DNA of 64,000 nucleotides from contig JAILGP010000002.1 of assembly GCA_024696635.1 (NCBI GenBank), positions 1,276 to 65,275 of the forward strand, given 5' to 3'. Of the stretch, positions 8,828 to 45,024 are shown piece by piece. Source of the stretch: Eubacterium sp. GTDB lineage: Bacteria; Bacillota; Clostridia; Lachnospirales; Lachnospiraceae. Numbering within the stretch: the stretch's first letter is position 1; each line of letters opens with the position of its first letter. The notes below the pieces were generated by a model. That model searched no databases. It was not told the DNA's origin and saw only the letters and a list, made by a program, of their open reading frames with translations. A program made the translations under genes and the position numbers.

Positions 8828-9694
8828 TTGAAATATTTTGAGGATATAAATTTGGAATATAAGAAGGAAATTAAAAAGGAAATTAAAAAGGAAATTAAAA
8901 AGGATATAGATCAGGAAATAAAGAAGGAAATCAGGATACATTTTGTGGGAGCAGGTTCGGGAGCCAAGGATCTGATAAGTATTAGGGGGGCAAGACTACT
9001 TGAGAAAGCAGATATTGTCATATATGCAGGTTCCCTTGTTAATCCTGAGCTTCTGGAATATTGTCCTCAGGCTGAGATTTATAACAGTTCAAATATGACT
9101 CTTGAGGAAATCCTTGATGTAATGAAGGCAGGACATGATGATGGAAAAGAAGTAGTAAGACTTCATACAGGGGACCCAAGTATATACGGAGCAATACGGG
9201 AGCAAATGGATGAACTGGATAAATCAGGAATAGAATATGATTCCTGTCCAGGGGTTACTGCCTGCTTTGGTGCGGCTTCAAGTCTTAATCTGGAATATAC
9301 ACTTCCAGGAATATCACAATCACTTATTATTACCAGAATATCGGGAAGGACTCAGGTGCCTGAATCAGAAAGTATAGAAAGCTTTGCCAGTCATAAGGCT
9401 AGCATGGCTATATATCTTAGTGCTTCTATGGTAGAAGAAGTGGCTCAAAGTCTTATCAGGGGTGGCTATGACAAAGACACTCCTGCGGCCATAGTTTATA
9501 AGGCAACCTGGCCAGAGGAAGAAAAATATATATGTACCATAGAAACACTTTCTGAAACAGCCAGGGTCCATAATATTACCAAGACTGCTATTATTCTTGT
9601 AGGTCAGGTTATAAATAGTTCTAATTATGAAAAGTCCAGACTTTATGCTGCAGATTTTTCTACTGAGTTTAGAAAGGCTAAGGATATAAAATGA
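8828..9694 (+). CDS. cbiF: Cobalt-precorrin-4 C11-methyltransferase with KKEI-repeat N-terminal extension
   Basis: HFVGAGSG, YAGSLVN, RLHTGDPSIYGA, PGVTA, YKATWP. Confidence 0.95.
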   Translation: MKYFEDINLEYKKEIKKEIKKEIKKDIDQEIKKEIRIHFVGAGSGAKDLISIRGARLLEKADIVIYAGSLVNPELLEYCPQAEIYNSSNMTLEEILDVMKAGHDDGKEVVRLHTGDPSIYGAIREQMDELDKSGIEYDSCPGVTACFGAASSLNLEYTLPGISQSLIITRISGRTQVPESESIESFASHKASMAIYLSASMVEEVAQSLIRGGYDKDTPAAIVYKATWPEEEKYICTIETLSETARVHNITKTAIILVGQVINSSNYEKSRLYAADFSTEFRKAKDIK

Positions 9695-10740
9695 TAATTC
9701 GTATATGCGCTTTTACTCTAAAGGGCTGGGAGCTTGCGGATAAAATTGAAGAAAGCTTTAAAGAACACATTTTTGAAAGAAGATCTACAGATATTAAGCT
9801 TGATGCTTGGGCCAGGGATTCCTTTTTTATTAAGGCTCCGATAATTTTTATAGGGGCAGCCGGAATTGCTGTCAGGGCAATTGCAGGGTCAGTCAGTGAC
9901 AAGCTTACAGATAGTCCCGTGCTTGTTATAGACCAGTCAGGAAAATATGTTATTCCGATTTTGTCAGGTCATGTGGGCGGAGCAAACAGGCTGGCTTTGG
10001 AAATAGGGGAAAGACTCAGTATGATACCTGTAATTACCACGGCAACAGATGTAAATTCAAGTTTTTCAGTGGATGAATTTGCTGTGGCTAATAGACTTAC
10101 CATAGTAAATAGAGAGGGTATAAGAAGAGTTGCTTCTAAAATTTTAGAGACAGGTTCTATTACAATGTCCATAAGTCCGGATATAGATAGTGAGACTTTA
10201 AAGGCTGATAATTTTTTTGTTGATAATAATATTAAGCTTTTAGCTTATCCACCAGAAAACAGGGTGGACCTTATTATATCAGGTGATGATAAGCTTATAG
10301 ATAAGGCAGAGCTTTTCCTTAAACCCAAGGAATATATTCTTGGAATCGGATGTAAAAGGGGAAGCTCAGAGGGAAATATAAGGAAGACTGTGGAAGAAGT
10401 TCTGGCCCAATATGATATAGATATAAATAGTATAGCAGCCATAGGAACAATTGATATTAAGGAAAGGGAATATGGACTTTGCGCTTATGCTCAGAAGGAG
10501 AAAATTCCATTACTTACATTTAGCGCCCAGGAATTAGAGACTGTGGAGGGAAATTTTGCCCAGTCAGAATTCGTAAAGTCAGTGACGGGAGTTTCAAATG
10601 TCTGCGAAAGAGCGGCCGTATGCGGAGCTATTTATTATGGGGGAGATTCTGATAATACCAGCATTATAATTCCTAAAAGATCAGGGCAGGGTATTACCAT
10701 AGCCCTTGCCAGAAGAAAGGTAAAATTAATAAGTGGATAA
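9691..10740 (+). CDS. cbiG: Cobalt-precorrin-5A hydrolase
   Basis: FIGAAGIAVR, DSPVLVID, PILSGHVGGAN, VITTATD, LGIGCKRG, GVSNVCERAA. Confidence 0.95.
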   Translation: MIIRICAFTLKGWELADKIEESFKEHIFERRSTDIKLDAWARDSFFIKAPIIFIGAAGIAVRAIAGSVSDKLTDSPVLVIDQSGKYVIPILSGHVGGANRLALEIGERLSMIPVITTATDVNSSFSVDEFAVANRLTIVNREGIRRVASKILETGSITMSISPDIDSETLKADNFFVDNNIKLLAYPPENRVDLIISGDDKLIDKAELFLKPKEYILGIGCKRGSSEGNIRKTVEEVLAQYDIDINSIAAIGTIDIKEREYGLCAYAQKEKIPLLTFSAQELETVEGNFAQSEFVKSVTGVSNVCERAAVCGAIYYGGDSDNTSIIIPKRSGQGITIALARRKVKLISG

Positions 10741-11470
10741 AGTGATTTATATAATTGGAATAGGTCCTGGAGCTGAGGAGTATTTAACCAATCAGGAGAG
10801 AAATGCTATAGAAAAAAGCGACATAATAGTTGGATATAGCCTCTATGTGGAACTTCTTAAAAAGGTTTATCCGGACAAGGAATATCGTATTACGGGAATG
10901 AGACAGGAGATAGAAAGATGCAGACTCTGTTTTGAACTATCAGAGGAGGGCAAAACTGTTTCTATGATATGTAGTGGCGATGCAGGTATCTATGGAATGG
11001 CATCTCCTATGTATGAATTATTAAATGACTATCCTGATACAGACCTTGTAGTAGTGCCAGGGATTACAGCCGCAAGCAGTGGGGCAGCAATTTTAGGTGC
11101 ACCTCTTAATCATGATTTTTGTGTAATCAGTCTTAGTGACCTTATGACTCCCTGGGAAGTAATAGAAAAGAGAATTCGTGCAGCCATAGCAGGGGACTTT
11201 GCTATAGCATTTTACAATCCATCAAGTAATAGAAGGGCTGACTATCTTGAAAAGGCCTGCAATATTATGCTGGATGCAGGGGCTGATCCTGACAGGGCCT
11301 GTGGCTATGTTGAAAATATTGGAAGGCAGGGGACAAGAGCCCTATGCTGTACCCTTAAGGAGCTTAAAGCTACTAAGGTAAATATGTTTACAACAGTTTT
11401 TGTTGGTAACTCCATGTCATATATTAAAGATAATAAGCTTATTACAAAAAGAGGTTATAGATGTGAGTAA
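10733..11470 (+). CDS. cbiH: Cobalt-precorrin-3B C17-methyltransferase
   Basis: IGIGPG, SGDAGIYGMA, GAPLNHDF, ISLSDLMTPW, FYNP, LITKRGY. Confidence 0.95.
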   Translation: MDKVIYIIGIGPGAEEYLTNQERNAIEKSDIIVGYSLYVELLKKVYPDKEYRITGMRQEIERCRLCFELSEEGKTVSMICSGDAGIYGMASPMYELLNDYPDTDLVVVPGITAASSGAAILGAPLNHDFCVISLSDLMTPWEVIEKRIRAAIAGDFAIAFYNPSSNRRADYLEKACNIMLDAGADPDRACGYVENIGRQGTRALCCTLKELKATKVNMFTTVFVGNSMSYIKDNKLITKRGYRCE

Positions 11471-13655
11471 GGTACTTATATTTGCAGGAACTACAGAAGG
11501 AAGAGAGCTTGCGAAAATACTGGTGAGGTCTGGTATATCCTGTCATGTCAGCGTTGCAACTCAATATGGCAGCATGGTCATGAAGAATTTGGAATCAAAG
11601 AATTCGGAATCAAAGAATTCGGAATCCGGGAAAATGGAATCTGACGAATCCGAATTAATACAAATTCATCAGGGTCGCCTTGACCAGGAGGAAATGAGGG
11701 AACTTTACAAATCCACGGAATGTCAGGTGGTGGTGGATGCAACCCATCCTTATGCCCAGGTGGTGACAGAAACAATACTTAAAAGTATAGAAGGAAGCAC
11801 AATTAAATATATTCGCCTTCTTAGAGAAAATAGTAAATATACCTTAGGTGGGAATAGTGAATATAATTTAGATAGTAGCGATATGCTAATAAGTCATGAC
11901 TCTAATGATCTAATCAGAGATTATAAATCTGTTTCTGATTGTGCAAGAGAGCTTGAGAATACAGATGGAAAGGTTCTTATAACTACAGGCAGCAAGGAAT
12001 TAAGGTATTTCTGTGAAAAGGAAGGATTAAGAAAGCGTCTTCTTGTAAGAGTACTTCCCGGTATGGAAAGTCTTAAGCTTTGTTATGACTGTGGACTTGA
12101 GGGTAAGCAGATTATTGCTATGCAGGGGCCCTTTACTAGTGAGATGAATAAAGCGATTATTAATCAGTATGATATAAAGCATCTGGTAACTAAAGAAAGT
12201 GGAAATCTGGGTGGATTTGATACAAAGCTTGAAGCGGCCTATGAATCCAGAATAATGGTTCATATGATAAAAAGACCTGACTCAAGTGTATATGGCATGA
12301 ATATGAAGGAGTGCCTTGAAAAACTGGAGGAATATCTTGATATAAAGATAAAAAAATCAAGTCTCAACATCACTCTTGCAGGAATAGGCTGTGGTTCTTA
12401 TGAGGGTATGACTATTGAAGTGAAGAATGCTATAAGTGAGTCTGATTATATATTTGGTGCAGCCAGGATGCTTGAGGGTATATCTGCTCCGGGGGTGACA
12501 TTTCCCTATTATATGGAGAAGGATATAATTCCAATTCTCGATAAGCTTGAGGAGGAAAGAATAGGAAATACAAATATTGTTATACTTTTTTCTGGAGACA
12601 GTGGATTCTACAGTGGGGCTGAAAATATGTATAAGGCCCTAAAGAACAGGAAGGATACATATGTTAAGCTTCTTCCTGGGATTTCGTCCATAAGTCTTCT
12701 TGCTGCAAGAACAGGAATAAGCTGGCAGGATGCAAAAATTCTGAGCCTTCATGGAGTAAGTGAAGAGGTATGGATTTCTCAGCTTATGGATGCTGTAGCT
12801 TGCGAGGAGAAAACATTTTTTATCTCATCAGGTCTTAAGGATATAAAAAGACTTGGGAAACTGCTTAATGACATGGCAGATAAGAATCTTATAAATGAGG
12901 CTGATATAGATATAAAGCTTGGATACAGGCTTTCCTATATGGATGAAGAGGTGACAAGTCCTTCATTTTCTGATATGGAGAAATATGAAAAAGAGGGACT
13001 TTATGTTGGCCTTATATTAAATAGAAATACAGATAAAAGAGTGGATAGAAATATTGATAGAAATATAGATAGAGCAAATCTTGCCCCATCTATATCGGAC
13101 CAGGAATTTATTCGTGGAAAGGTACCTATGACCAAGGAAGAAATCAGGCATCTATCAATCTGTAAGCTTAGGCTAAAGAGTGGAGATGTGGTTTATGATA
13201 TAGGTAGTGGTACCGGTTCTATAGCTATTGAGGTGGCAGGCCTTTCTAAAGATATTAAGGTATATGCCTTTGAATATAAAAATGAAGCTACAGAACTAAT
13301 AAAAGAAAATATTAAAAAACATAATAAATCAAATATAAAGCTTATTCAGAAAAAGGCCCCGGATGGACTGGACCAGGTGGATAAGGGGGACGCTGCATTT
13401 ATAGGTGGAAGTGGAGGAAGGCTGAAAGAGATTTTAAATAGACTTTTCCAGATAAATCCTCAGATGAAAATAGTTATAAATGCAGTAAGTATGGAAACTA
13501 TAGTAGAAATGGACCAGATACTTAAAGATATTCCAATAAAAAATCTCGATATTTGTCAGGTATCTATTTCTAAAATTAAAGAGCTTGGTGCTTATCATAT
13601 GATGCAGGCTAATAATCCAGTATTTATATACTCCTTTGAGTTTTGTCAGGTTTAA
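11463..13655 (+). CDS. Fused precorrin-6A reductase / C5-methyltransferase / C15-methyltransferase-decarboxylase (CbiJ-CbiE-CbiT)
   Basis: N-terminal FAGTTEGR, VDATHPYA, AMQGPF, TKESG (CbiJ); middle GIGCG, LFSGDSGFYSGA, LPGISS (CbiE); C-terminal VPMTKEEIR, DIGSGTGS, FIGGSGG, MMQANNPV (CbiT). GTG 11463 overlaps the cbiH stop. Confidence 0.9.
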   Translation: MSKVLIFAGTTEGRELAKILVRSGISCHVSVATQYGSMVMKNLESKNSESKNSESGKMESDESELIQIHQGRLDQEEMRELYKSTECQVVVDATHPYAQVVTETILKSIEGSTIKYIRLLRENSKYTLGGNSEYNLDSSDMLISHDSNDLIRDYKSVSDCARELENTDGKVLITTGSKELRYFCEKEGLRKRLLVRVLPGMESLKLCYDCGLEGKQIIAMQGPFTSEMNKAIINQYDIKHLVTKESGNLGGFDTKLEAAYESRIMVHMIKRPDSSVYGMNMKECLEKLEEYLDIKIKKSSLNITLAGIGCGSYEGMTIEVKNAISESDYIFGAARMLEGISAPGVTFPYYMEKDIIPILDKLEEERIGNTNIVILFSGDSGFYSGAENMYKALKNRKDTYVKLLPGISSISLLAARTGISWQDAKILSLHGVSEEVWISQLMDAVACEEKTFFISSGLKDIKRLGKLLNDMADKNLINEADIDIKLGYRLSYMDEEVTSPSFSDMEKYEKEGLYVGLILNRNTDKRVDRNIDRNIDRANLAPSISDQEFIRGKVPMTKEEIRHLSICKLRLKSGDVVYDIGSGTGSIAIEVAGLSKDIKVYAFEYKNEATELIKENIKKHNKSNIKLIQKKAPDGLDQVDKGDAAFIGGSGGRLKEILNRLFQINPQMKIVINAVSMETIVEMDQILKDIPIKNLDICQVSISKIKELGAYHMMQANNPVFIYSFEFCQV

Positions 13656-39625: not shown

Positions 39626-40348
39626 ATGTGTGCATTTATGAATAAAGTAATCGAGATGCAGCACATCAATAAGAAATACTACGAAGGTAAAGAAAATGAG
39701 CTGCATATACTTCACGATATAGATTTTACCGTAAACAATGGTGAGTTTGTATCACTGGTAGGTGAATCCGGATCTGGTAAATCTACCATGATGAATATAA
39801 TAGGCGCTTTAGACAGACCTACCTCAGGAAATTATTATCTGGCAGGAGAAGATATCTCTAGTCTTGATGATGATCGTCTTAGTGAAATAAGAAACAGAGA
39901 AATAGGATTTGTCTTCCAGAGCGCATATATGATTCCACGTATTTCAGCGGTGGAAAATGTGGAAGTGCCTCTTATGTATGCTGGAGTATCCAGAAAACAG
40001 AGGAGGGAAAAGGCTATGGATCTGCTGGAAATGGTAGGTATGGGCAAAAGATATAAACATAAGGCTAATGAACTATCGGGTGGACAGAATCAGAGGGTGG
40101 CGATAGCCAGGGCTTTGGCCTGTGACCCATCAATAATTCTTGCGGATGAACCTACTGGAGCTCTGGACTCTAAAACAGGACATCTGATAATGGATATATT
40201 TCACAGGCTTCATGAGGAACAGCATAAGACTATAGTTCTTATTACACATAGTAAGGAGCTGGCTCAGGAAACTGAAAGAATTATAACAATTAGTGATGGA
40301 TTTATAGTAAGTGATGAACAGAATATATCGAGGGGAGGGATCAACTAA
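39626..40348 (+). CDS. ABC exporter ATP-binding subunit (MacB/LolD type; start may be 39638)
   Basis: GESGSGKST, IGFVFQ, LSGGQNQR, LADEPTGALD. Confidence 0.93.
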   Translation: MCAFMNKVIEMQHINKKYYEGKENELHILHDIDFTVNNGEFVSLVGESGSGKSTMMNIIGALDRPTSGNYYLAGEDISSLDDDRLSEIRNREIGFVFQSAYMIPRISAVENVEVPLMYAGVSRKQRREKAMDLLEMVGMGKRYKHKANELSGGQNQRVAIARALACDPSIILADEPTGALDSKTGHLIMDIFHRLHEEQHKTIVLITHSKELAQETERIITISDGFIVSDEQNISRGGIN

Positions 40349-41643
40349 TGAATTTTGCAGAAAATCTCCGCCTGGCATGGTCTTGTGTAAAGTCCAATAA
40401 AATGCGTTCTATCCTGACTATGCTTGGTATAATAATCGGTATAAGTGCGGTTATTACTATTTCAACTCTTGGTTCATCTCTGAGACAGACTATATCAGGT
40501 ACTTATTCAGATATGATGAGTACCAATCAGCTTGCATTTTTCTGGGCGTCATATTCAGATGAAGTGGAAGAAGAACCATGTCAATTTGATCTTGAGACTA
40601 CCTATGAATTTAAAAAAGCATTTGCTGATCAGATTTCATCGGTAATGCTCCAGGAAAATGTGGGAACAGCTACATATCACTATGATGATCAAACGAAGGA
40701 TGTTAATGTTATAGGAATGTCTGAGGGTTATCTGGAGACAAATAAATACGAAATTATTATGGGACGAGATGTGGAATATGGTGACAGCTTTAGTAATAAG
40801 AAGGTTTGTGTCGTATCAGATAATTTTGTAAAATATGCTCTTGGTGGTATGGAAAATCCTATAGGCCAGAGATTGGAATTTGAAGTTTCTGATAACACAA
40901 TGACAGCTTATATAATAGGCGTATATAAGATGTCGGATAAGGCTACAAAGCTTACTGGACAGGCAAAGGTTTCTGAAAAAGATCAGGTAACAGATATGGT
41001 TATTCCTGTTTCTTATGCCTGGGATTTTTTGGAGGTTCCTGAAGATATAAGAAGTAATTATTACCTTTACGTTAATGCAAATAACGGAGTTGACAGTGAA
41101 GAACTTATGGAAAATATTAAAACATATTTCGAGTCAAAAAAGTCTCCTGAAAGTTCGTATTTCCTTTATGTCGAGAGCTTGGAGCAGCAGCTTAAGATGA
41201 TAAGTAATGTTTTGGATGTAATTACTATTATCATATCCATTATTGCAGCTATATCCCTTATAGTAGGTGGTATAGGAGTAATGAATATCATGCTGGTATC
41301 CGTTGTGGAACGTACTAAGGAAATAGGTATAAGAAAGGCTCTTGGTGCTAAAAATAAGGTTATAGAGGCTCAGTTTCTGGTGGAATCAGTTCTTATTTGT
41401 GCTATTGGTGGTATTGTAGGAATTCTTTCTGGCTTACTAAATGGTGGAATTATTGCTGCGGTGGCTAAGGCGATAGTATCGCGGTCAGAGGAATTTAATT
41501 TCCTTTCTGTAAATGTAAGCCCTCCAGTGACTATGATAATTGTTGCATTCCTGTTTTCTACACTTGTAGGTATAGTATTTGGATTATATCCTGCAAGAAG
41601 GGCTGCAAGACTTTCACCAATTGATGCTCTTAGATATGAGTAA
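40348..41643 (+). CDS. ABC exporter permease (MacB/FtsX type)
   Basis: RSILTMLGIIIGI, GGIGVMNIMLVSV.ERTKEIGIRKALGA, FGLYPARRAARLSPIDALRYE. Confidence 0.93.
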   Translation: MNFAENLRLAWSCVKSNKMRSILTMLGIIIGISAVITISTLGSSLRQTISGTYSDMMSTNQLAFFWASYSDEVEEEPCQFDLETTYEFKKAFADQISSVMLQENVGTATYHYDDQTKDVNVIGMSEGYLETNKYEIIMGRDVEYGDSFSNKKVCVVSDNFVKYALGGMENPIGQRLEFEVSDNTMTAYIIGVYKMSDKATKLTGQAKVSEKDQVTDMVIPVSYAWDFLEVPEDIRSNYYLYVNANNGVDSEELMENIKTYFESKKSPESSYFLYVESLEQQLKMISNVLDVITIIISIIAAISLIVGGIGVMNIMLVSVVERTKEIGIRKALGAKNKVIEAQFLVESVLICAIGGIVGILSGLLNGGIIAAVAKAIVSRSEEFNFLSVNVSPPVTMIIVAFLFSTLVGIVFGLYPARRAARLSPIDALRYE

Positions 41644-41684
41644 AATATCATACAATTGTATACTTGAAATTATTATTTGATTTA

Positions 41685-41725
41685 GATTCCTGTCTTGCGA
41701 ATATTGTGAGGCAGGAATTATTATT
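41685..41725 (+). terminator. Hairpin after the exporter operon
   Basis: attcctgtcttgcg-aatat-tgtgaggcaggaat then an AT-rich tract. Confidence 0.6.
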
Positions 41726-41814
41726 TTATATGGATTTGATGTTTTCTTTATGTTGACAAGTTATTTTCTATATTGTATGTTTGAAAATAATTACAAAGGT
41801 TGAGGAGTATAATT

Positions 41815-42048
41815 ATGATATTTGATAAAATAATTGAATTACTTGTAGATTTTTCTATACAGCCACAGGATATTACTATGGAAACTTCTTTTAAGGATGA
41901 TCTGGCTATTGATTCCCTGGAGCTTTATAATCTTGTTATGGCTCTTGAGGAAGAATTCAATATTGAAATGCCAGAGGAAAGAACTGGAGAGATTGAGACC
42001 ATAGAGGATTTAATTCGTGTCCTTAAAGAGCTTGGTGTAGAGGAATAA
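41815..42048 (+). CDS. Acyl carrier protein (monocistronic)
   Basis: DDLAIDSLELYNLVMALEEEFNIEMP with DSL phosphopantetheine site; GAGGAG RBS. Confidence 0.9.
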   Translation: MIFDKIIELLVDFSIQPQDITMETSFKDDLAIDSLELYNLVMALEEEFNIEMPEERTGEIETIEDLIRVLKELGVEE

Positions 42049-42094
42049 AAGATTTAATTCGTGTCCTTAAAGAACCAGGTTTTAAGGAATAAAA
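42007..42094 (+). repeat. 44-bp tandem duplication of the ACP gene 3' end
   Basis: gatttaattcgtgtccttaaaga...aggaataaaa at 42007 and 42051. Confidence 0.9.
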
Positions 42095-42116
42095 ACTTTG
42101 AAAATCAGATTATAAT

Positions 42117-42154
42117 AAAAGGGCCAGTCTATAAGTGTAGACTGGCTCTTTTTT
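42117..42154. terminator. Bidirectional intrinsic terminator
   Basis: aaaa-gggccagtcta-taagtg-tagactggctc-tttttt. Confidence 0.85.
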
Positions 42155-42270
42155 GAAGAATCGATAGGGAATATTTCAAAAAGTTTTTTAAACTATTTTG
42201 AATATGGTTTTGGATTAGAATTGCCCCACGGGTTAAATGGGGCAATTCAGTATCAAAGGAGTTTATCATT

Positions 42271-42288
42271 AGTTAGATTTGCCTAACT
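42271..42288. promoter_or_regulatory. DtxR/MntR-family operator-like palindrome AGTTAG-N6-CTAACT
   Basis: agttagatttgcctaact; TTAG-N6-CTAA geometry of Sir/MntR boxes; adjacent to a DtxR-family gene. Confidence 0.65.
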
Positions 42289-42333
42289 GACATGTATAAT
42301 ACAATTTTTTTATTCGTTTGTCAATAGAAATAC

Positions 42334-42362
42334 TTGCCTTTTGGGTTAAATTATGCTAACAT
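42334..42362 (+). promoter_or_regulatory. Putative regulator promoter TTGCCT-N17-TAACAT (TGn extended) containing a second operator GTTAA-N6-CTAAC (42345-42360)
   Basis: Read directly; box spacing is identical to the one at 42272-42287. Confidence 0.55.
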
Positions 42363-42446
42363 TTGTTAAGATTTCAAATGTAGAATTAACATTTGTTTAT
42401 AATATGTAAGTAGGATAAAGAATAATTAATTTGGGAGGAAGGTAAA

Positions 42447-42830
42447 GTGACAATGGAGATTCATCAGTCTGCAGAGGATTATCTTGAGGCTATACTAATG
42501 ATTAAGGAAAAAAAAGGTTATGTAAGGTCTATAGATATAGCAAATCAGTTGGAGGTTTCAAAACCAAGTGTAAGCTATGCAACTAAGAGGCTTCGCGAAA
42601 ATGGATATATATCATTTAATGAAGATGGAATGATATCACTTACAGAATCTGGTTTTGAGATTGCAGACAAGATTTATACAAGACATAAGGTTCTGACTTC
42701 TATATTTAAAAAACTTGGGGTTGATGATAATATTGCAGCAGAAGACGCATGTAAGATTGAACATGATTTGGATCCTCAGACATTTGATGCTATACGTAAG
42801 TATGCTAAAGAGCATGGTCTTTGTGAATAA
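42447..42830 (+). CDS. DtxR/MntR-family metal-dependent transcriptional regulator (short form, no FeoA domain)
   Basis: SAEDYLEAI, VRSIDIA..LEVSKPSV, RHKVL, AAEDACKIEH. Confidence 0.92.
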   Translation: MTMEIHQSAEDYLEAILMIKEKKGYVRSIDIANQLEVSKPSVSYATKRLRENGYISFNEDGMISLTESGFEIADKIYTRHKVLTSIFKKLGVDDNIAAEDACKIEHDLDPQTFDAIRKYAKEHGLCE

Positions 42831-42930
42831 ATTGATTAAAATTAGTTAGAATATGAAATCATATATTTAATAAGTAAATCATATATTTAATAAGTAAATT
42901 ATATTTATTTGAATAATTCAATAAATTATA

Positions 42931-42972
42931 AAAAGACGTTTCCAGTTTGAATGGAAGCGTCTTTCTTTTTGT
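42931..42972. terminator. Bidirectional terminator between the regulator and the virD4-like gene
   Basis: aaaagacgtttcca-gtttgaa-tggaagcgtcttt-cttttt. Confidence 0.8.
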
Positions 42973-42978
42973 TAAAGG

Positions 42979-44367
42979 TTAAATGGCATCCTGCCTGAAG
43001 TAATCAGGTGTATATTTTTCGACCTTTATACCACCCTTGGTATTGCCGGATTCAAATACATATGCTGTATTTAGTGCCATATTAAGTACGTTGTAATATG
43101 GGATATTTAATTTTTCGCCTATATATTTTGCAGTCTCAACCTCTGGAGTTCCAAGGAAGAGCATGTGGTCGCAGTTAGCCATAATAGTGTTGGATTCGTA
43201 GGTTGTATAATTTTCGTTCAGCTGTGATACAGACTGAAGTATAATGCTGACGCTGATTTCACGGGATCTTATTACAGAAATAAGCTTAGAAAAATTAGGA
43301 ATAACTGTGTTGGTTGCAAAATCATCCAGTATGAATCTTACAGGAACCTTCAGTCTATGGTCTGGAAGGGAATCCGCATAATTAATAATCTTATTCATGG
43401 CCTGGGAATAGAATATATTTACTATTTTGTCACTGGATCTGTCACTGTCGCTGACATTGAGGAAAAGTGCTATTTTTTCTTTTCCGAGATCCGTAAAATC
43501 AAAATCGCTTTTAGAGCTATATATATAACGGGACTCCTTGATATCAAAACCTACAATGGAAGTTGCTACAACTATCATGATGCAGGAATAGGTTTTTTCT
43601 GCCTGGGATACTGTCTTAAACAATTTGTATCTTGTAACCGCGAAGCTGTTTGGAGATTCCGATTCCAGTTCATCAAAAATCGAATCTGTGAATTTGCTAT
43701 TGGAACATTCAGAAATTAATTCTATAAGTTTTTCAGGAGTATGATCACTATCTGGTGTTGCTTCAAGAAGAAAAGAAATAAGAGCAGTAAGGAATATCTG
43801 AGCGCTTCTTGGCCAGAAGGGATCTTTTTCATCAGGCTTAACAGGACAGAGATTTTCTGCTATAGTGGAAATATCCTGATTGTTATAGGTATTTGTTTCT
43901 TTGTCGTAAGTGATAAAGTCAAAGGGATTATAATGATTGGAATTGGTTCTTCCCATAAAATCAATTTTTAAAACCTTGTAGCCGGCTTGTTTAAGTTCAT
44001 TGGCATGTCTGTCATATAGGCAGTTCTTTGTATCGGAAATAATCATGCTGCCGCATTTCTGGGATATAAGTGGGTCCACATAACCGGTGGTCTTGCCTCG
44101 TCCTGAAGCGCCGATTATAAGGTCATTATTATTAAGACCTGTTATATGTGAATTGTTATTAACAAAGAAATCCTTTGCCAGCATACGGTATTCCGGACTG
44201 CTCATATTGGGTTTGGAGTTGCTTTCTAGAATCTTATCAAGGGGCTTTGTTTTTTTGCTTTGAACTTTTGGGGTTCTTGACTTTGTTTCCTTATTCTGAA
44301 CTTTTGGGGTTCTTGACTTTGTTTCCTGGCCCTTTGTTTTTTGGGGTGTTGAAGTATTAGTATTCAT
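42979..44367 (-). CDS. VirD4/TraG-like type IV coupling ATPase lacking N-terminal TM anchor
   Basis: TGLNNN.LIIGASGRGKT (Walker A), ISDTK, YNPFD, DPFW, PVRFILDDF (Walker B-like), IRSREISVSIILQS, IMANCD. Confidence 0.85.
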   Translation of the reverse strand: MNTNTSTPQKTKGQETKSRTPKVQNKETKSRTPKVQSKKTKPLDKILESNSKPNMSSPEYRMLAKDFFVNNNSHITGLNNNDLIIGASGRGKTTGYVDPLISQKCGSMIISDTKNCLYDRHANELKQAGYKVLKIDFMGRTNSNHYNPFDFITYDKETNTYNNQDISTIAENLCPVKPDEKDPFWPRSAQIFLTALISFLLEATPDSDHTPEKLIELISECSNSKFTDSIFDELESESPNSFAVTRYKLFKTVSQAEKTYSCIMIVVATSIVGFDIKESRYIYSSKSDFDFTDLGKEKIALFLNVSDSDRSSDKIVNIFYSQAMNKIINYADSLPDHRLKVPVRFILDDFATNTVIPNFSKLISVIRSREISVSIILQSVSQLNENYTTYESNTIMANCDHMLFLGTPEVETAKYIGEKLNIPYYNVLNMALNTAYVFESGNTKGGIKVEKYTPDYFRQDAI

Positions 44368-44442
44368 AGTTTTATACCTTTCTTACATAAATTATTAAGC
44401 TTTATTGATATTTGTTTTGAGGTAAACCTAAATTATATGCAT

Positions 44443-45024
44443 TTAGAACTCGGTGATTATTTCTGTCGCCAGACCGAATTCCAGTGCTTCCTCTGCATTG
44501 AAATATGAGTCTCCCTTGGTTTTGGAGTAAACAGTGCGAAGGGGTTTTCCAGTTCTTTCAGCTATTATTCTGGCCAGTTCTTCTCTGGTTTTCATGAGAT
44601 TTTCTAAAGTATCCTGAACCGCCAGAGCCTTTGACGGTGTATTTCCAAGGGTAACAGATGGATCATGAATCATAATCTGGGAATGCTTTGTCATACATCT
44701 TTTATCTCCTGCCAAAAAAATGATGGATCCCATGCTGGCTGCAATTCCTATACAGACTGTTTTTACGGGAGACTTTGCCATTCGGATAATGTCATAGAAA
44801 ACAAGACCTGAGGTAACTTCTCCGCCGGGTGAGGTGATATAGAGTGTTATCTCTTTGCCTGGGTCAATACGGTCCAGGTACATAAAACGTTTAATCATTT
44901 CCGACATGGTTTCACTGTCTACACCGTCAGAAAGAACTAACTCTCTGTTAGAAAACATATAATCATCAACTGAATAAATCTGTTTTCCGCTATTTGTTGT
45001 TTCAAGAATATTAACTGGTTTCAT
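44443..45024 (-). CDS. ClpP-family serine peptidase (non-housekeeping paralogue)
   Basis: LYITSPGG, GIAASMGS (Ser), IMIHDP (His), GDSYF (Asp), AEEALEFGL; AAGGAG RBS. Confidence 0.9.
   Translation of the reverse strand: MKPVNILETTNSGKQIYSVDDYMFSNRELVLSDGVDSETMSEMIKRFMYLDRIDPGKEITLYITSPGGEVTSGLVFYDIIRMAKSPVKTVCIGIAASMGSIIFLAGDKRCMTKHSQIMIHDPSVTLGNTPSKALAVQDTLENLMKTREELARIIAERTGKPLRTVYSKTKGDSYFNAEEALEFGLATEIITEF

Follow-up and report, generated by a model that had tools for sequence, protein, structure and literature searches.

The minus strand of the window (the whole stretch of DNA analysed here, 64,000 nt) carries, back-to-back with the gene of a DtxR/MntR-family metalloregulator, a predicted transcription unit that we consider, with a probability of about 0.6 and on comparative sequence evidence, to be a free-standing copy of a genus-specific, metal-repressed small RNA (sRNA) directed against ribosome-binding sites (RBSs) and tied to feoAB. 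Its hallmark is the exact 15-mer ATAAACTCCTTTGAT (window 42266-42252), which occurs once per genome in 25 out of 64 genomes of the genus; the reversed pattern, used as a control, matched no more than a minority of genomes even when one mismatch was tolerated, and the features go far past what chance would produce. Twenty-four of the 25 copies share one layout and one orientation, namely a 5' hairpin, the unpaired 15-mer and a 3' terminator hairpin, behind which there is usually a U-tract. The remaining copy, in genome G086, looks like a chance RBS of the opposite strand and was left outside the set of 24 modules. Comparison of these copies establishes the predicted shape of the RNA (5' hairpin, exposed 15-mer, 3' terminator hairpin), its placements, the type of its operator and its RBS complementarities, and it indicates that the RNA module is real and conserved in about 24 species of rumen Lachnospiraceae. 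The RNA family is best read as new but of a known kind, that of metal-repressed base-pairing sRNAs. The initial annotation had proposed a metal-repressed, RBS-pairing sRNA with an Mn/Fe-sparing role; the former part is retained as the best reading, since the same operator precedes feoA, other metal-transporter genes and the regulator gene, while the sparing role found no support, the conserved predicted partners being transporters.

Among the homologues the flanks diverge freely and the 15-mer is invariant. The mean unpaired probability of the anti-Shine-Dalgarno-like (anti-SD-like) octamer ACUCCUUU within it is 0.71, compared to 0.37 for the rest of the RNA (24 homologues), and the octamer is likewise unpaired in the centroid structure of a 182-nt window RNA, whose fold has a z-score of -8.0 against 200 shuffles. 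Thus, the earlier assignment of this motif to a single-stranded stretch stands, and the hairpin next to it is now read as the RNA's terminator in relatives. The stem of this 3' terminator exhibits compensatory changes at 11 of 11 pairs, and 92% of the cells are paired, versus 37-50% when the partner strand is slid. Covariation of the 5' hairpin is weak because its sequence is conserved in the copies linked to feoB. A covariance model recovers all 24 loci within the genus and returned nothing convincing from one genome of each of 150 other genera of the family, where its matches are generic terminators or opposite-strand RBSs; one-mismatch variants of the 15-mer inside the genus lie in coding sequence or RBSs and do not represent diverged copies. 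When all species genomes were scanned, the motif and the hairpin turned up together in the rumen isolates "Lachnospiraceae bacterium" AC2031, NE2001 and LC2019 and in rumen metagenome-assembled genomes (MAGs), along with a few matches in unrelated taxa that look like chance. In a DNA search of relatives, the region upstream of the regulator orthologue in genome G004 has the promoter, the arms of the palindrome and GATAAACTCCTTTGATAC, and then a different hairpin with a U-tract, and three other relatives combine ATAAACTCCTTTGAT with a hairpin of the GAATCGCC type in another context. A permissive scan of window positions 40000-45000 with Rfam 15 gave only sub-threshold chance matches on the RNA region (STnc630 reached 22.8 bits where 55 are required, and rteR and RgsA fell well short of their own thresholds), and we found no feoB-3'-UTR sRNA and no metal-related sRNA of Lachnospiraceae described in the literature. 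As judged from these comparisons, the family is a real, genus-restricted and previously undescribed one that is absent from Rfam.

At the window locus, the initial annotation had listed a promoter, a palindrome, ACUCCUUU, a hairpin and a terminator on the minus strand, and all of them are present at the coordinates that follow. The predicted sigma-70-type promoter (42296-42324, minus strand) comprises TTGACA (42324-42319) and TATTAT (42301-42296), separated by 17 nt; it is the top promoter-like site in a 2-kb scan, with 11 of 12 positions matched. About 7 nt past the -10 element, at the predicted +1, begins the palindromic operator AGTTAG-N6-CTAACT (42271-42288, spacer gcaaat), which, if transcribed, doubles as the 5' hairpin of the RNA. 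It is followed on the minus strand by the invariant single-stranded core AUAAACUCCUUUGAU (42266-42252), the proposed seed, which contains ACUCCUUU at 42262-42255, and by a perfect 11-bp hairpin (42248-42238 with 42228-42218) that in relatives is the terminator stem of the RNA itself. The U-tract behind this hairpin is degenerate in the window (UUCUAAUCC at 42220-42212). Further downstream lies a bidirectional intrinsic terminator (42117-42152), an inverted repeat (I2) whose GC-rich stem occupies 42146-42123 and whose U-tail runs to 42117; it also ends the convergent acyl carrier protein (ACP) gene (41800-42048, plus strand). Accordingly, two forms of the minus-strand RNA are predicted: a short one of ~80 nt (42210-42289) with the 5' hairpin, the 15-mer and the 3' hairpin, based on promoter geometry and on those homologues that have a proper U-tract, and a long read-through one of ~172 nt that extends to the bidirectional terminator at 42117. 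The 3' end is uncertain, as the hairpin has no proper U-tract, and the RNA may have either length. In the relative G064 a stem identical to that of the window precedes UUCUUUAUUUU, and the ACP gene comes immediately next. In the window, ~170 nt of extra sequence lead up to the bidirectional terminator. This extra sequence includes a tandem duplication of the ACP 3' end. The duplication (42001-42088) has a 44-nt unit, is 82% identical, spans the ACP stop codon and is absent from G064; its second copy repeats the 3' end of the ACP gene within non-coding sequence.

The regulator gene (42447-42830, plus strand) encodes a two-domain DtxR/MntR-family protein of 127 aa (Pfam Fe_dep_repress and Fe_dep_repr_C) that lacks the SH3 domain. 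Its closest solved structures are MntR proteins, and it scores under both NCBIfam MntR equivalog cut-offs (89.3 bits versus 153 for NF008273 and 78.8 bits versus 138 for NF003025). An ungapped alignment to Bacillus subtilis MntR reveals that D11, E14, H80, E105 and H106 are kept, and that Cys102 is aligned with Glu99 of the B. subtilis protein; a Cys at the Glu99-equivalent position is typical of the iron-responsive DtxR/IdeR proteins. The promoter of the regulator gene (42334-42362, plus strand) lies back-to-back with that of the RNA and consists of TTGCCT at 42334-42339, a 17-nt spacer and TGcTAACAT at 42354-42362. Within it, at 42345-42360, is a box of the same type as the operator of the RNA (GTTAAATTATGCTAAC, plus strand), and this promoter stretch is the best-conserved intergenic part upstream of the orthologues in at least 7 relatives. 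A second type of palindrome, TAACA-N2-TGTTA, occurs twice just downstream of the regulator's -10 element (42356-42401, plus strand; CTAACATTTGTTAAG and TTAACATTTGTTTA). Its first copy is conserved upstream of the regulator gene in many congeners, and neither the sRNA promoters nor the feoA promoters contain this type.

In 24 of 29 genomes, the 200 nt ahead of feoA contain a box of the form [AG]TTA[GAC]-N6-[CT]TAA[CT], as a rule immediately after a TTGACA-N17-TATTAT-like promoter. The window genome (G000) also has such boxes in the feoA-feoB spacer and before a second feoA, a ZIP transporter gene and a gene for a heavy-metal P-type ATPase. It is only the position of the boxes at metal-gene promoters that is informative and not their genome-wide counts, the loose pattern being not enriched across the genome (31 sites versus ~75 expected from base composition). 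The RNA gene has, as a metal-repressed sRNA gene should, an operator that overlaps its promoter, and the co-location, together with the box that the regulator gene has in its promoter, leads us to infer that the divergent DtxR-family protein binds it. The feoA-feoB spacer of the same genome (L072:3490-3840, minus strand) is unusually long (~300 nt) and AT-rich, and its own box, AGTTAAATATATCTAACA, suggests separate control of feoB.

The 24 modules occupy three kinds of place. In 18 genomes the module begins a few bases past the feoB stop codon of a feoA-feoB operon; as in 3'-UTR-derived sRNAs, it lies between the stop codon and the shared mRNA terminator, and no consistent internal promoter could be read upstream of the 5' hairpin in these feoB-linked copies. 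The window copy does not fit this class, as it has its own promoter. With G064, G069 and G004 it forms a group of four species in which the module is back-to-back with the promoter of the DtxR/MntR-family gene and is headed by TTGACA-N17-TA(t/a)TAT and by an (A/G)GTTAG-N6-CTAACT box at +1. In G001 and G008 the module precedes feoA as a unit in its own right, complete with promoter, GTTAGA-N5-CTAAC box, 5' hairpin, 15-mer and terminator, and feoA has another promoter for itself. All six standalone copies thus share TTGACA-N17-TAtTAT and a GTTAG-N5/6-CTAAC box. The -35 and -10 elements are kept and the spacers differ in the standalone homologues (G064, G069, G004, G001 and G008), and in G064, G069 and G004 the same is true of the operator, whose arms are kept while its spacer varies. 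Neither the set of 24 genomes nor the genus-wide search revealed two module copies in one genome, and no second copy was found in the window's own genome, whose feoAB operon is 87% identical to that of AC2031 and whose feoB is followed by another terminator that lacks the 15-mer. The FeoB tree is too poorly resolved to indicate the ancestral placement or to tell one origin of the free-standing form from two. According to the initial annotation, a metal-transporter gene at this place in relatives would have made the promoter an orphan left by deletion. Such a gene does appear, only in an unexpected way, with the module as the 3' UTR of feoB in 18 relatives, and others have a small gene for a Cys-rich membrane protein divergent from the regulator gene; the idea of an orphan promoter has to be abandoned, since four species have conserved the free-standing form intact. 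After the RNA terminator, G001 (L052) has three direct repeats of the terminator's 3' half, cgggagtttttcttaataaaa, and G008 (L067:3500-3590) has two copies of cattacagagattttta.

To identify candidate partners, duplexes of the 15-mer with RBSs were compared with those at 1930 SD-led ORF starts of the window genome (median -7.6 kcal/mol; 1.1% reach -13.8 and 3.8% reach -12 kcal/mol). The comparisons were made among related, non-independent genomes, and the leader of the gene for an MntP-ZIP fusion protein is largely shared by descent. The best-conserved candidate is the RBS of this gene, with duplexes of -14.4 to -19.0 kcal/mol in all nine RNA-bearing genomes that have the gene; the RBS keeps the core (U/A)UCAAAGGAGUUUA, while its flanks vary. 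In RNA-lacking genomes the corresponding values are -5 to -12 kcal/mol in six out of eight, and the other two, G026 and G086 (MAGs that are 79% and 82% complete), have the same complementary leader. The feoA RBS reaches -13.8 kcal/mol or lower in 13 of 23 RNA-bearing genomes (background 1.1%) by means of differing sequences, e.g. AUCAAAGGGG or AAGGAGUUUAU, and the feoB RBS reaches -12 kcal/mol or lower in 13 of 22 (background 3.8%), with (A/U)UCAA(A)GGAGG as a recurrent form. In the window genome itself the MntP-ZIP RBS ranks 11th of 2598, with a duplex that needs two G-U pairs, and a FeoA-FeoB fusion gene ranks about 20th; the RBSs of the main feoA (-7.8 kcal/mol) and feoB (-9.8 kcal/mol) are ordinary, poor partners. 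Anti-SD seeds yield many false target predictions, and two metalloprotein candidates were rejected as targets: hydF, the top RBS match of the window genome, is not conserved as a partner in the other RNA-bearing genomes, nor is the complementarity of a nifH-like gene. The conserved predicted partners are transporters and not the dispensable metal-using proteins that a sparing response would target. A Fur-like candidate target is encoded by a gene unique to the window genome among the genus. This Fur-family-like gene (131 aa; G000:C5:1189-1584, L232) sits on a contig of 3.4 kb; the remaining 63 genomes of the genus yielded no orthologue at E ≤ 1e-30, and the gene may represent accessory DNA or contamination.

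We propose that transcription starts at ~42289 from the TTGACA-N17-TATTAT promoter and is probably blocked when the metal-loaded divergent DtxR/MntR-family repressor occupies AGTTAG-N6-CTAACT at +1, so that the RNA would be made together with feoAB under metal scarcity. The 15-mer would mimic the anti-SD of 16S rRNA with extra flanking bases and could pair with RBSs of the (A/U)UCAAAGGAGUUUA type, chiefly those of the MntP-ZIP fusion, feoA and feoB; such pairing would block the initiation of translation and tune the metal flux post-transcriptionally. Upon release of feoAB by the repressor, the co-produced RNA would lower the synthesis of a metal exporter or exchanger and feed back on the importer. 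In most congeners, with the module as the 3' UTR of feoB, transcription of the uptake operon itself would deliver the regulator, and in the window lineage the module stands under its own copy of the same operator. As a tentative extension, which we put forward as a possibility and not as the expected outcome, the RNA would be a lineage-specific, Hfq-independent riboregulator that couples metal uptake to metal export, the feoB-3'-UTR form silencing MntP-ZIP and damping feoAB, and a few species having it, newly gained or retained as such, as an independent gene under a copy of the same operator. No Hfq gene was detected in the window genome, which is 97% complete, and the preferred reading is of an RNA that would act without Hfq.

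Could the module be a purely cis-acting element of the feoAB 3' UTR, whose 15-mer pairs with the feoA or feoB RBS of the same mRNA and sets its translation or stability, the window copy being a relocated one with little or no function in trans? Most copies (18 of 24) do lie in the feoB 3' UTR, the complementarity to feoA is strongest in feoB-linked genomes and weak in the free-standing cases G000 (-7.8 kcal/mol) and G069 (-6.1 kcal/mol), and in G005 a stretch of ~19 nt of the feoA leader recurs in inverted form in the 3' UTR. There are also Firmicute precedents for a 3'-UTR anti-SD-like motif that acts against the SD region of its own mRNA, namely icaR of Staphylococcus aureus (PMC3868564) and hbs of B. 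subtilis (PMC5737220), which differ from the present family in that they work in cis only, are not separate genes and have other motif sequences (UCCCCUG in icaR). Nonetheless, we regard this explanation as unlikely, as a purely cis role cannot account for the six species that keep the 15-mer, both hairpins and the boxed promoter as a separate transcription unit; moreover, the best-conserved complement is on another transcript, that of the MntP-ZIP gene, and every genome has exactly one copy whatever its placement, which argues that the placements are functionally equivalent. It is a good deal less probable that the window unit is a functionless or decaying leftover, in which the operator promoter that in other species serves a Cys-rich membrane-protein gene has been joined by rearrangement to a fragment of the feoB 3' UTR. 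A small gene of this kind does stand behind the same kind of box, divergent from the regulator, in G021, G026 and G033, and decay would be consistent with the degenerate U-tract, the 44-nt duplication in the downstream region and the different, 15-mer-free terminator of the genome's own feoB. However, the unit shares undamaged promoter hexamers, operator arms, 15-mer and hairpin with G064 although the bases around them have diverged, G069 and G004 retain this arrangement with another, compensated hairpin, and the unit is the sole copy of the module in the window genome.

We consider it similarly improbable that the 15-mer is not a base-pairing seed but a protein-binding site, either on the RNA (an entry site for an RNase or chaperone, or a decoy for the ribosome or S1) or on the DNA. 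The absolute invariance of 15 nt across species exceeds what most seeds need, Hfq was not found and predictions of anti-SD-like targets are noisy, all of which would suit such a site; yet the 15-mer is non-palindromic and has a fixed orientation relative to the hairpins and to transcription, a sign that it acts in RNA and not in DNA; it contains no known protein-binding motif of the kind of the GGA in CsrA sites; and the complementarity to transporter RBSs reaches beyond the SD in both directions and goes hand in hand with the presence of the RNA. The idea that the locus encodes a peptide can practically be dismissed. The only frame in the region, which opens with the ATG at 42269 and runs for 46 codons (42269-42129), has no SD and no Pfam match, its ATG is ATA in 11 of the 24 homologues and GTG or another codon in several more, and the frames downstream of this position are unrelated among homologues; hence the earlier statement that the flagged stretch contains no SD-led ORF is confirmed. 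On the plus strand, AAAGGAG might be taken for the genuine SD of a tiny ORF, but it is followed by ATT AGT TAG and by no usable start codon.

With respect to known systems, the nearest precedent for an sRNA controlled by a DtxR-family protein is MrsI of Mycobacterium tuberculosis, which is under the DtxR-family repressor IdeR. MrsI is described as required for an iron-sparing response (PMC6016810); it differs from the predicted RNA in that it comes from an unrelated phylum, has an unrelated sequence, uses a short seed on mRNAs of non-essential iron proteins and exists in a free-standing form only, with no link to feoAB. Like RyhB of Escherichia coli, FsrA of B. subtilis and IsrR of S. aureus, the last of which works without Hfq in a Firmicute (PMC9410917), the window RNA has a putative metalloregulator operator over its promoter and an exposed pyrimidine-rich stretch predicted to pair with Shine-Dalgarno regions. 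Unlike these RNAs, it has no sequence or Rfam similarity to them, its likely regulator belongs to the DtxR/MntR family and not to Fur, its conserved predicted partners are metal transporters and not iron-using enzymes, and most members of its family are embedded in the 3' UTR of feoB. The 18 feoB-3'-UTR copies resemble OppZ and CarZ of Vibrio cholerae (PMC7398697), which come from the 3' end of an operon mRNA, share its terminator and feed back on it, as the complementarity to RBSs within the same operon (here feoA and feoB) would allow. In their Gram-negative host OppZ and CarZ require RNase E and Hfq; unlike them, the present family also occurs free-standing with its own operator and has its better-conserved partner outside the operon.

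If the proposal is true, the genus offers a natural series of an sRNA that moves between 3'-UTR-embedded and free-standing states with its seed unchanged, and one invariant seed in three placements within one genus would be a clean natural case of such interconversion. Regulatory RNAs and metal homeostasis of the rumen and gut Lachnospiraceae, which are strict anaerobes, are almost unknown, and the locus provides a concrete, testable circuit of a DtxR/MntR-family repressor, feoAB and an anti-RBS RNA with named candidate targets, for which the strains AC2031, NE2001 and LC2019 are available in culture.

Two further observations on these genomes deserve mention. In AC2031, directly after the feoB-linked RNA (L021:8728-9102), there is a gene for a 124-aa protein that combines a FeoB-associated Cys-rich membrane segment with an HMA-like (heavy-metal-associated) domain, followed by a P-type ATPase gene at 9665-11746. 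The MntP-ZIP fusion of the window genome (G000:C79:10853-12223; L216:1501-2871) is a 456-aa protein with an N-terminal MntP (manganese efflux) domain and a C-terminal ZIP-like domain; many congeners have an orthologue of ~455 aa, and MntP alone is found in G077, G082, G087 and G022. Searches of Rfam with the MntP-ZIP leaders gave no match, including to the yybP-ykoY Mn riboswitch. The conserved leader (L201:1390-1500 in G072, and its equivalents in L203, L204, L206, L208 and L210) reveals a terminator-like hairpin, CCCAAGTA...TACTTGGG, then UUUUAUU, just before the RBS, which may be an undescribed attenuator or riboswitch.
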